From Escherichia phage TM1, in the sequence record MT808983.1: a DNA stretch of 39,817 bases, one strand, 5' to 3'. The position numbers were made by a program, and so were the translations under genes. Shown piece by piece: positions 11,198 through 39,817 of the stretch. Every line of letters starts with the position of its first letter. Within the stretch, counting starts at the first letter, position 1. The notes below the pieces were generated by a model. The model saw only the letters and a program-made list of their open reading frames with translations. It was not told where the DNA came from and did no database searches.

Positions 11198-11413
11198 ATG
11201 ATTAAACTTATCGAATTTCTTGGTCGTCTGGTGGTGCGTGGTTATCGTCGTGCTGCGGTACTGGAACGAAAGGTAGAAAAGAAGAATGCTGACGGTGCGA
11301 CTGATGCTGCTGCTCTGGCTGACAAGCTGACCATCGCGTCACTGGAAGCTGGCATGAAGGCACGTCAAGCTGACACCAAAGCTGACCAGTTGGCTCAGTT
11401 CTTCAAAGCCTAA
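11198..11413 (+). CDS. Small alanine-rich protein (71 aa), unknown function
   Basis: Strong SD AAAGGAGAA; its stop codon TAA lies inside the next promoter. Confidence 0.55.
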   Translation: MIKLIEFLGRLVVRGYRRAAVLERKVEKKNADGATDAAALADKLTIASLEAGMKARQADTKADQLAQFFKA

Positions 11414-11431
11414 ACTATCACCTTAGGGATG
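11408..11431 (+). promoter_or_regulatory. Phage-RNAP promoter variant (taaACTATCACcTtAGGGat)
   Basis: Two substitutions in the -4/-3 region; upstream of the tRNA-like element and the primase-helicase gene; probably weaker. Confidence 0.45.
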
Positions 11432-11476: not shown

Positions 11477-11555
11477 GTCTCCATAGCTCAAACGGTAGAG
11501 CGGCGGGTCATGATGGCCTATTGCGATTAGGGTTCGAATCCCCGTGGAGACGCCA
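11477..11555 (+). tRNA. tRNA-like element (possible degenerate tRNA, candidate anticodon CAT; anticodon arm ambiguous)
   Basis: Perfect 7-bp acceptor stem (gtctcca/tggagac), T8, D-arm gctc-aaacggta-gagc with GG, T-loop GGTTCGAATCC, discriminator G and encoded CCA; but 26 nt between the D- and T-arms with imperfect anticodon stem pairing. Confidence 0.4.
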
Positions 11556-21563: not shown

Positions 21564-21587
21564 ACTAAACTATCACTATAGGGAGAC
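21564..21587 (+). promoter_or_regulatory. Phage-RNAP promoter (taaACTATCACTATAGGGAGACC), phi10 position
   Basis: Longest match to the T7 class III consensus downstream region (TATAGGGAGACC); precedes the major capsid gene. Confidence 0.9.
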
Positions 21588-22733: not shown

Positions 22734-22864
22734 GCACCTTTAGCCAACCTAACGTCGCTACAGTAGCGGCTGCACCTGAAGAGGAGACTCTAACTCCTCA
22801 ACAGAAAGCTGCGCGTACTCGTGCTGCGAACAGGGCCGCTAAACTGGCTGAGTCCAACAACTAA
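22712..22864 (+). other. gp10B: Putative -1 frameshift extension of the capsid gene (gp10B-like minor capsid C-terminus)
   Basis: U-rich stretch GGTTTTC at 22712-22718, 5 codons before the 10A stop; the -1 frame stays open for about 50 codons (GFQPSGVSTF...KLAESNN) and stops at 22862-22864, just upstream of the Tphi-like terminator. Confidence 0.55.
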
Positions 22865-22865
22865 T

Positions 22866-22908
22866 TGAAACCCCTTGGGTGCCTTCGGGTGCTTGAGGGG
22901 TTTTTTGC
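22866..22908 (+). terminator. Late terminator, analog of T7 Tphi
   Basis: aaccccttgggtgccttcgggtgcttgaggggttttttg; close resemblance to T7 Tphi (AACCCCTTGGGGCCTCTAAACGGGTCTTGAGGGGTTTTTTG). Confidence 0.85.
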
Positions 22909-22927: not shown

Positions 22928-23494
22928 ATGGCTCAATACATTCCACTGAATGCTAACGATGACTTAGACGCCATCAACGATATGTTAGCAGCTATCGGTG
23001 AACCAGCAGTCCTACAGCTTGACGAGGGGAACGCTGACGTCTCGAACGCTCAACGTATCCTGCATCGTGTCAATCGTCAGGTCCAAGCTAAAGGCTGGAA
23101 CTTTAACATCAACGAAGCTGCTGTCCTGACACCTGATGTCCAAGACAATAGGATTCGATTCTTGCCGTCATACCTTCGTGTAATGACCGCTGGGGCCACC
23201 AGCTACTACAGCAACATGGGTGGATACCTGTACGACCTGTCCACTCAGTCAACCACTTTCACCGACCCCATCACGGTAGAGCTTGTGGAGATGAAGCCAT
23301 TCTCCGAGATGCCTGTGGTCTTCAGGGACTACATCGTCACTAAAGCTAGCCGTGAGTTCAACGCTAAGTTCTTCGGTAGCCCAGAGTCAGAGCTATACCT
23401 TCGTGAGCAGGAAGCAGAACTCTATCAGCAGGTTATGGAGTACGAGATGGACACTGGTCGCTACAACATGATGTCTGACATCGGGAGGGACTAA
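22928..23494 (+). CDS. gp11: Tail tubular protein A (T7 gp11 homolog)
   Basis: ANAQRILHRVNRQVQAKGWNFNINE...YIVTKASREFNAKFFGSPE...MEYEMDTGRYNMM, collinear with T7 gp11. Confidence 0.9.
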   Translation: MAQYIPLNANDDLDAINDMLAAIGEPAVLQLDEGNADVSNAQRILHRVNRQVQAKGWNFNINEAAVLTPDVQDNRIRFLPSYLRVMTAGATSYYSNMGGYLYDLSTQSTTFTDPITVELVEMKPFSEMPVVFRDYIVTKASREFNAKFFGSPESELYLREQEAELYQQVMEYEMDTGRYNMMSDIGRD

Positions 23495-23721
23495 TGGCTA
23501 GTCACAACCTGAAGATTCACCGCCAGCACTTTGGTCCGGTACAGCTAGGTCTAAAGACAGCAGAGCTGAGACTTAACGACCGGGACTTTAAGGTTGGCGA
23601 TTGGCTTATCCTGAATGAGTGGGACAACGGGTATACCGGACAACAGGTAGCGCGTAAGGTTGTCCACATTGCTGACGTTGGTGACATCTCTGAAGGATAC
23701 GTCCTAATGAGTATGATTTAA
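23494..23721 (+). CDS. ASCH/DUF3850-like small protein (75 aa) inserted between the tail tubular genes
   Basis: LKIHRQHFGPVQLGLKTAELRLNDRDFKVGDWLILNEWD...YTG...EGYVLMSMI matches the recalled DUF3850 (ASCH-like) pattern; ATG overlaps the gp11 stop. T7 has no gene here. Confidence 0.65.
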   Translation: MASHNLKIHRQHFGPVQLGLKTAELRLNDRDFKVGDWLILNEWDNGYTGQQVARKVVHIADVGDISEGYVLMSMI

Positions 23722-23730
23722 GGAGGGCCT

Positions 23731-26088
23731 ATGCCACTAATTACTCAATCAATCAAGAACCTTAAAGGTGGCATTAGCCAGCAGCCTGATATACTGAGGT
23801 TCTCAGACCAAGGCGAGGCACAGGTTAACTGCTGGTCATCCGAGAGTGATGGCCTCCAGAAGCGCCCACCTACAGTCTTCAAGAGACGTCTTAACATCGA
23901 CGTTGGGAGCAACCCTAAGTTCCACCTGATTAACCGTGACGAGCATGAGCAGTATTACATCGTGTTCAATGGGTCAAACATTCAGGTAGTTGACTTGAGT
24001 GGTAATCAATACTCAGTGTCAGGTGAGGTAGACTACGTTGAGTCCTCCAACCCACGAGATGACATCCGTGTCGTTACCGTGGCAGACTATACGTTCGTCG
24101 TTAACCGTAAGGTTGTCGTCAAAGGTGGAAACGAGAAGTCACACTCTGGTTATAACCGCAAAGCACGAGCTTTAATTAACCTGCGTGGTGGGCAGTATGG
24201 TCGAACCCTTAAGGTGGGAATTAATGGTGGCGTTAAGGTCTCGCATAAGCTACCAGCAGGTAATGATGCCGAGAATGACCCGCCTAAGGTGGACGCTCAA
24301 GCCATTGGTGCAGCTCTTAGAGACCTTCTTGTTCAGGCCTATCCTGACTTCACGTTCGACCTTGGGTCTGGATTCCTGCTAATCACAGCTCCTTCAGGGA
24401 CTGACATTAACTCAGTTGAGACGGAGGATGGCTACGCTAACCAGCTAATAAGCCCAGTCCTAGACACTGTGCAGACAATCTCTAAACTACCTCTTGCAGC
24501 TCCTAACGGGTATATCATTAAGATTCAAGGTGAGACAAACAGTAGCGCCGATGAATACTACGTGATGTATGACTCCAACACTAAGACGTGGAAGGAGACA
24601 GTGGAGCCGGGAGTTGTTACTGGGTTCGATGTCGCCACAATGCCACATGCTCTGGTCAGAAAGTCTGATGGCTCCTTTGAGTTCAAGACTCTGGATTGGT
24701 CCAAGCGTGGTGCTGGTAACGATGACACAAACCCTATGCCTAGCTTCGTGGATGCTACGATTAACGATGTGTTCTTCTACAGGAACAGGCTAGGGTTCTT
24801 GTCAGGCGAGAACGTAATCATGAGCCGTTCAGCCAGCTACTTTGCGTTCTTCCCTAAGAGTGTGGCTACACTGAGTGATGATGATCCTATTGATGTAGCT
24901 GTAAGTAACCCTCGTATCTCAATCCTTAAGTATGCCGTTCCGTTTAGCGAGCAGCTACTACTTTGGTCGGATGAGGTTCAGTTCGTGATGACAAGCTCTG
25001 GGGTACTTACCTCGAAGTCTATCCAGCTTGATGTAGGCTCAGAGTTTGCCTTAGGTGATAATGCCAGACCGTTCGCTGTAGGACGCTCCGTCTTCTTCTC
25101 AGCTCCTCGTGGGTCATTCACCAGCATTAAGCGATACTTCGCTGTAGCTGATGTGTCTGATGTGAAGGATGCCGATGATACAACTGGTCACGTACTGTCC
25201 TACATCCCTAACGGGGTGTTTGATATTCAAGGTACAGGTACTGAGAACTACATCTGCGTCAACTCTACAGGTGCATACAACCGAATCTACATCTACAAGT
25301 TCTTGTTTAAGGACGGCGTACAGCTTCAATCCTCTTGGTCACACTGGGAGTTCCCTAAAGATGATAAGATTCTGGCGTCTGCTTCTATTGGCTCTACCAT
25401 GTTCATCGTTCGTCAGCACCAAGGAGGGGTAGACATTGAGCACCTTAAGTTCATCAAGGAGGCAACTGACTTCCCGTCAGAGCCATATAGACTACACATT
25501 GACTCCAAGGTGTCTATGGTAATTCCAATTGGCTCATATAATGCTGACAACTATAAGACTACGGTTGACATTGGTGCTGCTTATGGCGGCAACGCTCCGT
25601 CTCCCGGTCGGTACTATCTGATTGACAGTCATGGTGCTTATGTGGACCTTGGGGACTTGACCAGTATCTCTACTGTGGTTATCCTCAACGGCGATTGGTC
25701 AGGACGCACAGTGTTCATCGGACGGTCTTATCTGATGTCCTACAAGTTTTCACGGTTCCTGATTAAGATTGAAGACGATAGTGGTACTCAGTCTGAAGAC
25801 ACGGGTCGTCTACAGCTTCGTCGGGCTTGGGTAAACTACAAAGACACTGGCGCTCTGAGACTCATTGTCAGAAACGGTGAGCGGGAGTTCGTGAATACCT
25901 TCAACGGGTACACCCTTGGTCAGCAAACCATCGGGACTACAAACATCGGTGACGGGCAGTATCGCTTCGCTATGAATGGTAACGCATTAACCACGAGTCT
26001 AACCTTAGAGTCCGACTATCCTACCCCAGTGTCAATCGTTGGGTGTGGCTGGGAGGCGTCATACGCTAAGAAAGCTCGTTCCGTTTAA
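23731..26088 (+). CDS. gp12: Tail tubular protein B (T7 gp12 homolog, 785 aa)
   Basis: Size and position after gp11; SD AAGGAGGG. Confidence 0.9.
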   Translation: MPLITQSIKNLKGGISQQPDILRFSDQGEAQVNCWSSESDGLQKRPPTVFKRRLNIDVGSNPKFHLINRDEHEQYYIVFNGSNIQVVDLSGNQYSVSGEVDYVESSNPRDDIRVVTVADYTFVVNRKVVVKGGNEKSHSGYNRKARALINLRGGQYGRTLKVGINGGVKVSHKLPAGNDAENDPPKVDAQAIGAALRDLLVQAYPDFTFDLGSGFLLITAPSGTDINSVETEDGYANQLISPVLDTVQTISKLPLAAPNGYIIKIQGETNSSADEYYVMYDSNTKTWKETVEPGVVTGFDVATMPHALVRKSDGSFEFKTLDWSKRGAGNDDTNPMPSFVDATINDVFFYRNRLGFLSGENVIMSRSASYFAFFPKSVATLSDDDPIDVAVSNPRISILKYAVPFSEQLLLWSDEVQFVMTSSGVLTSKSIQLDVGSEFALGDNARPFAVGRSVFFSAPRGSFTSIKRYFAVADVSDVKDADDTTGHVLSYIPNGVFDIQGTGTENYICVNSTGAYNRIYIYKFLFKDGVQLQSSWSHWEFPKDDKILASASIGSTMFIVRQHQGGVDIEHLKFIKEATDFPSEPYRLHIDSKVSMVIPIGSYNADNYKTTVDIGAAYGGNAPSPGRYYLIDSHGAYVDLGDLTSISTVVILNGDWSGRTVFIGRSYLMSYKFSRFLIKIEDDSGTQSEDTGRLQLRRAWVNYKDTGALRLIVRNGEREFVNTFNGYTLGQQTIGTTNIGDGQYRFAMNGNALTTSLTLESDYPTPVSIVGCGWEASYAKKARSV

Positions 26089-26111
26089 CTTATTGAATGG
26101 CCTATAGATTT

Positions 26112-26135
26112 ACCTTAACTATCACTATAGGGACT
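26112..26135 (+). promoter_or_regulatory. Phage-RNAP promoter (ttaACTATCACTATAGGGac), phi13 position
   Basis: Family consensus; predicted +1 G at 26129. Confidence 0.8.
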
Positions 26136-26174
26136 ATAGGCCCTTTAAGTTATAATACTTTAATAGGAGACTTT

Positions 26175-26657
26175 ATGTATATTCGTAAAGCTACGGAACC
26201 AGATGTCCACTACTTTCTCTGGCATCTTTCGGCAGATGATGTTAATGAGTGCAAAGCAAACTATGGGTCAACCGTGGGTCTCTCTGAAAGACTGCTTAAG
26301 CACCTATCTCCGTCATCTGTGGTTTTAACGAACGGTGTAGGCGAAGTGTTTGCCTATGGTGGCAGCCAAGGGGATAACGTATGGTTTTTGACTTCAGGTC
26401 TGGTCAACAAGCTGAGACCTAAAGAGAAGCGAGAGTTCATAAAGCGTATCTCTGAGTACAGGGACTTAATGTTAGACCAATACGGGACCATCTGGAACTA
26501 CGTGTGGTCAGGCAATAAGTCTCACATTAAATTCTTGAAGTTGCTTGGCGCTAAATTCCATGATGATTGGACTATCAGTCCGGTAACTGGTGAGCGTTTT
26601 CAATTATTTACTATCTCTAAGGAGGACGTATGTGTGAACCAGTATCCATCGGTCTAG
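26175..26657 (+). CDS. gp13-like internal virion/assembly protein (160 aa)
   Basis: ATG 26175 with SD AGGAG downstream of the phi13-like promoter (the longer track ORF from 26097 would span the promoter); position between gp12 and gp14. Confidence 0.6.
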   Translation: MYIRKATEPDVHYFLWHLSADDVNECKANYGSTVGLSERLLKHLSPSSVVLTNGVGEVFAYGGSQGDNVWFLTSGLVNKLRPKEKREFIKRISEYRDLMLDQYGTIWNYVWSGNKSHIKFLKLLGAKFHDDWTISPVTGERFQLFTISKEDVCVNQYPSV

Positions 26658-27217
26658 GAGTCATGTCTGTAGCCGGGGCCACTATGTCCTCATCCATGCA
26701 GGCCAAGGCCGAAGGTGCAGCAATTGACGCTCAGAACCGACAGGCTCAGGAGATGATTAAGCAGATGAACTACTCTGACGCCAACCTGAAGATGCAGGAG
26801 CGAGACCTGAAGGAGCAGCAGATGGCTGAACTGACAGAGACCACGCTCAACGGTATACGCAATCAAGGTATGGTCCGAGCTGCGGTGGCTGAGTCCGGTC
26901 TGGAAGGTAACTCTATGGACAGGATTGAACGTCAGGTCGAAGGAGATACAGTCAAGGAGCGAGCAGGGATTACCGAAAGTTACAACCGCGACTATGCAGC
27001 TATCTTCGGAAACCGTATCGCCAACATTGAGAACACCAAGTCTGCTATCCGTGGTCAGGGTAAAATCATCAAGACCAGCCCACTGGCTCATGCACTTAAT
27101 GTTGCTACAGCAGGGATGCAAGGTTACGCCGCTGGTAAGTCAATGTCTGGGACTTCAGGCTCTGGTGGTGCTGCACCAATTAGTGCTGCTAAAGGCACAC
27201 CGACAGGTCATAGATAA
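26630..27217 (+). CDS. gp14: Internal virion protein B (T7 gp14 homolog, 195 aa)
   Basis: Position between the gp13-like and gp15 genes; length as in T7 gp14 (about 196 aa); SD GGAGGA. Confidence 0.85.
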   Translation: MCEPVSIGLGVMSVAGATMSSSMQAKAEGAAIDAQNRQAQEMIKQMNYSDANLKMQERDLKEQQMAELTETTLNGIRNQGMVRAAVAESGLEGNSMDRIERQVEGDTVKERAGITESYNRDYAAIFGNRIANIENTKSAIRGQGKIIKTSPLAHALNVATAGMQGYAAGKSMSGTSGSGGAAPISAAKGTPTGHR

Positions 27218-27228
27218 GAGGAGGACTA

Positions 27229-39638: not shown

Positions 39639-39817
39639 TCACAGTTCAAGAACCTCAAGTCTCCCCATAGGCCCTCTTTTAGTCCAGACCAAAGGCCCTA
39701 CCCCAGTCTATCATAAGGTGGGACCGATGGTCAAGACTTCAGGTCAACGATAGGTTGAGGCTATGGCTGGAGGTCGGGACGATAGGTAGGGACTATGGGT
39801 CTGCCTCTAAGTCCCTA
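39639..39817. repeat. Right direct terminal repeat, identical to 1-179
   Basis: Sequence tcacagttcaag...ctaagtcccta matches the first 179 nt of the window. Confidence 0.85.

Follow-up and report, generated by a model that had tools for sequence, protein, structure and literature searches.

Introduction

Characterised relatives within the ASCH superfamily include the RNase ZmASCH. N4-acylcytidine amidohydrolases of the YqfB type use the residues Lys21, Thr24 and Glu74 and gave no gel shift with nucleic acids (PMC9599836). A 2026 preprint reports that all 19 ASCH proteins tested, proteins of the Glu type included, remove N4-acetylcytidine at position 34 (ac4C34) from E. coli tRNA in vitro, and that the Lys and the Glu of a conserved octapeptide were essential in the Glu-type proteins that were mutated, namely TthASCH, EOLA1 and TRIP4 (10.64898/2026.02.27.708502). 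ASCH proteins are the usual partners in toxin-antitoxin-like operons of the (PIN)-GNAT-EVE type (PMC7641849). Fusions of the domain DUF3850 to a ParB-CTPase are enriched in phages and prophages and bind CTP (PNAS 2025, PMC12704722). Here, we analyse the DNA of Escherichia phage TM1 (MT808983.1; 39,817 bp, hereafter the window), in which an open reading frame (ORF) of 75 amino acids codes for a bare DUF3850 domain between the tail genes 11 and 12.

With identical direct repeats of 179 bases at its two ends (1-179 and 39639-39817), the window represents a complete linear T7-like genome. The phage is a member of the genus Kayfunavirus (K1F/EcoDS1 group), and many records of Escherichia, Salmonella, Enterobacter and Klebsiella phages are 97-98.5% identical to it between gp11 and gp12. 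The ORF is already known: it is annotated in EcoDS1 (EU734172, YP_002003774), in CR44b (as gene 11.05), in JSS1, in EFA-1 and in more than 100 other Kayfunavirus records. Labels in use are 'RNA-binding protein' (EcoDS1), 'activating signal cointegrator' (JSS1) and 'DUF3850 domain containing protein' (EFA-1). A literature search yielded passing mentions only for DUF3850, in seven papers, and nothing for the Kayfunavirus ORF or for orf91 of P2.

Identity and fold of the gene product

The ORF starts with ATG, spans 23494..23721 (+) and encodes MASHNLKIHRQHFGPVQLGLKTAELRLNDRDFKVGDWLILNEWDNGYTGQQVARKVVHIADVGDISEGYVLMSMI, a stand-alone protein of the minimal ASCH/PUA-like type and the counterpart of CR44b 11.05 and EcoDS1 YP_002003774. 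An earlier note, made from the sequence alone, had placed a 75-amino-acid ORF at exactly this position between gp11 and gp12 and had assigned it to DUF3850/ASCH. Profile searches confirmed this membership far beyond chance. Pfam DUF3850 (PF12961) is matched with E = 1.6e-19 and 70.3 bits (cut-off 22.9), residues 4-73 corresponding to positions 2-76 of the 77 model positions. The match to Pfam ASCH (PF04266, PUA-like clan; E = 7.7e-6, 27 bits, cut-off 21.2) covers positions 2-63 of 103 only. A full-length ASCH domain continues into a C-terminal helical part, which the protein lacks, ending at residue 75. Pfam keeps DUF3850 separate from ASCH because DUF3850 is a truncated, minimal version. Among the PHROGs, phrog_986 ('RNA-binding protein') was matched with 9e-35, at positions 95-171 of a profile of 253 positions, which indicates that many members of this group carry extra parts. 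We regard the identity of the gene and its assignment to DUF3850 as practically certain.

The sole match among PDB sequences was 3IUW (E = 1e-10), the structural-genomics prototype of DUF3850. An AlphaFold2 model of the product, built with 86 homologues, reached a mean predicted local distance difference test (pLDDT) score of 97.1 and has the fold of this prototype. The octapeptide GxKxx[E/T/S]xR, typical of ASCH domains, is present as G19-L-K21-T-A-E24-L-R26 and thus in its Glu form. Codons 21-36 (23554..23601, +; KTAELRLNDRDFKVGD) comprise the conserved core of the octapeptide, followed by the loop NDRDFKVGD, which is specific to DUF3850.

In the 86 homologues L6, K7, K21, E24, R26, D29, R30, G35 and L40 are invariant, and H4, N28, F32, K33, V34, D36, E42, Y47, T48, G49 and V70 are conserved in at least 90%. 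The window protein has all residues that are invariant or at least 90% conserved among those taken as typical of the family (K21, E24, R26, N28-D29-R30, G35, D36, L40 and E42). Likewise, the residue pattern given in the earlier note is carried by the product, although two of its spacings were off by one residue. The alignments of the 86 homologues were seeded with patterns that included NDRDFKVG and may be biased, hence an exhaustive phmmer search was performed against 1.84 billion representatives. With a threshold of E<=1e-3, 5,319 proteins were obtained; the best 150 were listed and 149 of them could be retrieved. Among these 149, the motif K..E.R.[ND]DR is kept in 141.

Fourteen polar residues are invariant or nearly so (H4, K7, K21, E24, R26, N28, D29, R30, D31, K33, D36, E42, Y47 and T48). 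The protein is slightly acidic, with an isoelectric point (pI) of 6.4 and a net charge of -1, and the family has a median pI of 6.7. Both the density of conserved polar residues in a chain of 75 and the neutral to acidic charge favour a defined pocket or active site over a generic nucleic-acid-binding surface. The octapeptide and the NDRDFKVGD loop are presumed to form the ligand or active site. The 'putative RNA binding' of the earlier note is only a label taken from the fold.

Organisation and expression of the locus

The ORF is flanked by gene 11 (tail tubular protein A or adaptor; 22928..23494, +) and gene 12 (tail tubular protein B or nozzle; 23731..26088, +), as judged from ORF calls and the annotation of relatives. 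The junction with gene 11 reads TAATG (23492..23496, +), in which the stop codon TAA (23492-23494) and the start codon ATG of the ORF (23494-23496) have one nucleotide in common. The four-nucleotide ATGA overlap proposed earlier has to be corrected to this one-nucleotide overlap. A strong Shine-Dalgarno sequence for the ORF, GGGAGGG (23483..23489, +), lies within the 3' end of gene 11, and the signal GGGAG[G/A]GACTAATG was kept in all 18 relatives examined.

In K1F, gene 11 is joined to gene 12 via the same GGGAGGGACTAATG, whose ATG starts gene 12, and the same Shine-Dalgarno signal serves gene 12 instead. Compared to K1F, the window contains an extra cassette of 237 bp (23494..23730, +), the boundaries of which are ambiguous due to the repeated ATG. 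At its 3' end the extra stretch supplies gene 12 with a separate Shine-Dalgarno sequence, GGAGGG (23722..23727, +), located three nucleotides before the ATG of gp12 at 23731 and kept with small variations in relatives. This synteny is in line with the earlier description of the gene as inserted. That T7 has no gene at this place also proved correct: gene 11 (24228-24818) and gene 12 (24842-27226) of T7 are separated by a gap of 23 nucleotides only.

Five promoters for the phage RNA polymerase match the EcoDS1 phi10 consensus (17763, 20584, 21564, 33399 and 39041), whereas none would be expected by chance. The nearest one upstream of the ORF (21564..21586, +; pattern search) is a perfect match to EcoDS1 phi10, and the same search found no promoter between 21586 and 33399 at up to three mismatches. 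A Tphi-like terminator hairpin with a T-run is situated just upstream of gene 11 (22869..22906, +; sequence and terminator scan), at the place where EcoDS1 carries the annotation 'terminator phiTE'. The layout of promoter and terminator matches that of T7. Genes 11 and 12 of T7 are transcribed late by read-through. Based on the phi10 promoter and the Tphi-like terminator upstream, we infer late read-through transcription of gene 11, the ORF and gene 12. Translation of the ORF is probably coupled to that of gene 11, as the overlap and the Shine-Dalgarno sequence suggest. The signals, taken with purifying selection on the ORF, argue for its expression.

In the CR44b record, notes reading 'matches in mass spectrometry analysis' are attached to gp10, gp11 and gp12, but not to 11.05, which is weak evidence that the product is absent from the virion. 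The ORF does not have the profile of a core structural gene of the T7 group, found in all relatives with the same tail and with its product in virions.

Distribution of the cassette and selection

A homologue of the ORF at the DNA level was detected in approximately 164 phage records, whereas the flanks are common to roughly 205-215 records. In most of the former, the Kayfunavirus orthologue has a protein identity of 95-99%, the same position and the same TAATG coupling; database proteins 96-99% identical to the ORF product exist. In Pipis (with 96% identical flanks), K1F, Dev2 and CR8 both flanks match and the middle gene is absent. The ORF is dispensable, since it is absent from K1F, Pipis, Dev2, CR8 and T7. 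The cassette is old within the genus, and the GC content of the ORF matches that of the flanks.

For diverged pairs of alleles with 63-84% protein identity, the ratio of nonsynonymous to synonymous substitution rates (dN/dS) ranged from 0.08 to 0.25 at a dS of about 1 or more. The values are similar to those of gene 11 in the same genome pairs, indicating that the ORF has diverged together with its neighbours under purifying selection. The start context is conserved in all alleles examined, and the length of the reading frame is identical in 17 of 17 alleles other than that of CR44b.

Gene 11.05 of CR44b (L083:1407-1631) shows 45% identity, the exchange E24D, a change of NDRD to SIPE and a DUF3850 score of 26.6 bits. 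It retains an intact frame and the same coupling. This allele is either decaying or changed in function. Two otherwise near-identical IMG/VR alleles are hit at invariant positions, R30L (L012:4001-4225) and D31G (L008:589-813); sequencing errors could account for these exchanges, as could a tolerated loss of function. In the Hafnia phage vB_HpaA_yong1 (MK610268, L092:1134-1574), a gene of 146 amino acids with an Endonuclease_7 domain (Pfam 2.6e-20) is located between the ORF and gene 12. This endonuclease VII-family gene is probably a mobile or homing-type nuclease. As a second insertion at the same place, it indicates that the junction appears to accept insertions readily.

The host labels of three records, which carry the names of hosts unrelated to those of this enterobacterial group, look doubtful. 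EFA-1 (MT350292), labelled as an Enterococcus phage, is 97.7% identical to the window at the DNA level across the gp11-gp12 stretch. The Acinetobacter phage vB_Aba_01KA (PV615262) is 97.4% identical over the region upstream of gene 4, and the Staphylococcus phage MBBL139 (OR786095) has a protein identity of 82.7% for the ORF.

Genomic context of DUF3850 in other phages and bacteria

A tblastn search detected the DUF3850 domain in 561 phage records, which include Kagunavirus-like and DS8-like siphoviruses, T1-like phages, P2-like phages (orf91), Enterococcus, Listeria and Gordonia phages and cyanophages. In DS8 the gene lies between the helicase and the primase gene; in L-413C (orf91) it directly follows the P2-type replication gene A. 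JMPW1 has the gene in its early region, and a Listeria phage and T1-like phages have it in modules for replication/recombination.

Pfam families of neighbouring genes were surveyed for 129 neighbours at 47 distinct loci on viral contigs and for 150 neighbours at 78 loci in bacterial genomes, the 25 commonest families being considered for each survey. Phage_GPA, primase zinc ribbons, REP_ORF2-G2P, NinB/NinG, Dam, N6_N4 methyltransferases, PAPS_reduct, RNase_T, YopX and HNH dominate. Neither tail genes nor acetyltransferases are among the 25 commonest families in either survey. The position in a tail operon, as seen in Kayfunavirus, is atypical for DUF3850 and probably reflects only where a small cassette is tolerated.

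Of the 149 closest relatives outside Kayfunavirus, among the matches listed, 86 are at least 120 amino acids long, and the domain is usually N-terminal. The partner regions of longer homologues mostly have no Pfam family: among 20 multi-domain relatives scanned, one carried a DnaA_C helix-turn-helix (HTH) and one a DUF551. Beyond these two, the same scan gave just a sub-threshold match resembling Rv2632c, and partner domains were rejected as a clue to function. A writer/eraser partnership with a GNAT protein was considered and rejected: there is no GNAT in the window, nor is there an acetyltransferase among the commonest neighbour families. The libraries of defence and anti-defence proteins gave a partial match of 14 bits only (PADLOC) and no match (NCBIfam).

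Function of the gene product

Our preferred reading, which we hold tentatively, is that the product has a nucleobase pocket in which an N4-acylated cytosine of RNA or tRNA is hydrolysed or read, by analogy with the Glu-type ASCH proteins. We take the ORF to be a functional accessory gene that a Kayfunavirus lineage acquired as the 237-bp cassette between gp11 and gp12; its late transcription would proceed through the Tphi-like terminator, and its translation would be coupled to that of gp11. The product, a minimal five-stranded ASCH/PUA-like beta-barrel with one helix, is not expected to be part of the virion. A pocket formed by the octapeptide residues Lys21, Glu24 and Arg26 and the loop Asn28-Asp29-Arg30-Asp31 may take up a pyrimidine base, either free or flipped out, for which an N4-acylated cytosine such as the ac4C of host tRNA is at present the most plausible guess. 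The acyl group could be hydrolysed via the Lys/Glu dyad, as in the Glu-type ASCH deacetylases, or the base could merely be read; in either case host RNA would be altered late in infection. Residues K21 and E24, which correspond to the Lys/Glu dyad of these deacetylases, are present and invariant. The near-neutral to acidic charge of the product resembles that of the YqfB-type enzymes.

Several points weigh against this reading. The link to ac4C is one of analogy, because the 19 assayed ASCH proteins include no DUF3850 or viral member (10.64898/2026.02.27.708502). The C-terminal helical part of a canonical ASCH domain is missing, the alignment to YqfB (hhalign) covers residues 10-47 only, and in YqfB it is the missing part that carries the general acid Glu74 (PMC9599836). 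The NDRD loop has no counterpart in the characterised ASCH enzymes. Elsewhere, the family sits with genes for DNA replication and modification and is fused to a DnaA_C HTH and to ParB-CTPase (PMC12704722); these neighbours and DNA-binding fusions suggest DNA no less strongly than RNA. CR44b retains the ORF despite E24D and the loss of NDRD. We know of no benefit that a phage would draw from de-acetylating tRNA-Met.

A further, distinctly doubtful version is that the product acts as a minimal 'eraser' enzyme which, late in infection, removes N4-acetyl or other N-acyl groups from nucleic acid of the host or the phage. Decoding might be reprogrammed by de-acetylation of C34 in the elongator tRNA-Met; alternatively, as a counter-defence, acetyl marks of GNAT-type toxins or of defence systems might be undone. 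Were the 'eraser' version true, the about 5,300 clusters of DUF3850 at 50% identity, most of them from phages and prophages, would make up an extensive family of viral enzymes that deacylate nucleic acids.

A DNA-directed role of the domain is nearly as likely as the reading of RNA or tRNA. In this case the domain would read or process bases that are flipped or modified, for example by damage or by N4- or N6-methylation, in the replicating DNA of phage or host, possibly as an accessory to replication, modification or anti-restriction, and the tail operon would be a mere landing place. Such a role would fit the location of the gene beside helicase and primase in DS8, after gene A in L-413C and in replication/recombination modules of Listeria and T1-like phages, as well as the dominance of the replication-, methyltransferase- and nuclease-type families listed above among its neighbours. 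The fusions to DnaA_C HTH and ParB-CTPase (PMC12704722) point in the same direction. ASCH domains have been predicted to be readers of modified DNA bases (PMC4738411, PMC7641849), and a 5-hydroxymethylcytosine (5hmC) DNA glycosylase with an ASCH-like fold has been reported (bioRxiv 2026.02.25.707755). Rather improbable, by comparison, is a small-molecule hydrolase of free modified pyrimidine nucleosides or nucleotides that has no nucleic-acid target and serves salvage into cytidine or dCTP pools or the destruction of a nucleotide signal. YqfB-type enzymes are highly efficient on free ac4C and showed no RNA binding in gel shifts (PMC9599836), and EOLA1 is reported to deacetylate free ac4C (bioRxiv 2026.08.01.741249). 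The acidic to neutral charge of the product would suit such an enzyme. The ParB-CTPase fusion partner binds CTP, itself a cytosine nucleotide, and kinase-like families (AAA_17/AAA_18) account for 3 of the 150 bacterial neighbours. However, the Thr and the Glu74 of YqfB are missing from the product, free ac4C is a very minor pool, and neither the viral nor the bacterial survey revealed a consistent neighbourhood of nucleotide-metabolism genes.

Structural and 'junk' readings of the ORF are unlikely. That the protein serves in tail assembly or as an accessory of the virion, its position between gp11 and gp12 reflecting a structural role, is very improbable. We give even less credit to the view that the ORF is a passenger without function, decaying and retained only because it maintains translational coupling and spacing for gp12. 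The ORF is dispensable in relatives, the CR44b allele is degenerate (26.6 bits, NDRD lost), and R30L and D31G affect otherwise invariant positions in single metagenomic alleles, all of which would suit a passenger. Against it stand the low dN/dS, similar to that of gp11, the intact family-invariant residues in the window and in most alleles, and the uniform frame length of the 17 alleles examined besides CR44b.

The window contains a tRNA-like gene at 11477-11555 (+), between a promoter-like site (~11409-11431) and the primase/helicase gene. It scored 36.5 bits with the Rfam tRNA model, and ARAGORN called it a tRNA-Met with the anticodon CAT. To our knowledge, T7-like phages usually have no tRNA genes. 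Of about 203 related records, just 34 have the element, which amounts to an insertion of roughly 85 bp. In 32 of 32 near-identical copies, annotated as tRNA-Thr, tRNA-OTHER or pseudo, the anticodon is CGT; one G>A exchange within it sets the window apart from them. By our own reading there is one mismatch each in the anticodon stem and the T stem, and the variable loop has 9 nucleotides. The ac4C of E. coli sits on tRNA-Met(CAU). A link between this element and the ORF was considered and rejected, as the relatives all have CGT (Thr), the element occurs in 34 of about 203 records compared to approximately 164 with the ORF, and the anticodon and T stems are imperfect.

Further features of the window

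An antisense ORF at 23517..23687 (56 amino acids) was discarded as spurious; nothing supports it, and the gene in which it is embedded is under purifying selection. An Rfam scan of the DUF3850 ORF for a hidden RNA element gave no match. Folding gave a z-score of -1.65, with 3 of 100 shuffled sequences folding at least as well, which is not compelling, and a hidden RNA element was rejected.

The stretch from the stop codon of gene 10A to the Tphi-like hairpin (22734-22866, +) corresponds to the EcoDS1 'region of similarity to gp10B', which is reached by a frameshift at a slippery sequence. Downstream, the mechanical ORF of gene 13 (26097-26657, +; 186 amino acids) starts 8 nucleotides after the stop codon of gene 12. 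Relatives annotate a shorter gene 13 of about 156-159 amino acids that starts approximately 77 nucleotides after gene 12, and the true start in the window is probably an internal ATG. A promoter of the phi13 type could sit between gene 12 and this start; no promoter was found between the two genes at up to three mismatches to the phi10 consensus.

Comparison with described proteins

The 5,319 cluster representatives of the exhaustive search and the 561 phage records mark DUF3850 as a large and phage-enriched family. The reported removal of ac4C from tRNA by Glu-type ASCH proteins provides a concrete assay for its function. The locus described here offers a test bed, namely a bare domain of 75 residues in a T7-like phage that is small and genetically tractable and whose relatives K1F and Pipis are natural knock-outs. 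A clear result of the assay either way would improve the blanket label 'RNA-binding protein' that has spread through phage annotation.

With the Glu-type ASCH proteins (TthASCH 2DP9, EOLA1, TRIP4-ASCH and the archaeal Pku and Afu proteins), the ORF product has the beta-barrel core and the Lys/Glu of the octapeptide in common. These proteins comprise 110-160 amino acids and possess C-terminal helices, whereas the ORF product lacks the helices and has its own NDRD loop; sequence similarity is marginal (ASCH model, 27 bits). E. coli YqfB (1TE7/9KYF) has Thr24 where the ORF product has Glu24, and its Glu74 lies in a C-terminal region of which the ORF product has no equivalent. Since two defining residues are lacking, the product is not a YqfB-type enzyme. 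The ParB-CTPase fusions contain the same DUF3850 domain, but the window protein is the bare domain, with neither a ParB fold nor a neighbouring parA.

Among the Kayfunavirus orthologues examined, most of the alleles with 95-99% identity carry A66, in contrast to S66 in the window allele. CR44b 11.05 differs more strongly from the window allele, by its identity of 45% and the lack of the NDRD loop. Compared to the DUF3850 prototype 3IUW (E. faecalis EF_0920-type 'activating signal cointegrator', 83 amino acids), the ORF product is a plain member of the family from which nothing essential differs. The setting alone distinguishes it from other DUF3850 proteins: it is encoded in a T7-like tail operon, whereas the others are found in replication or early modules or in nin-type regions of prophages.

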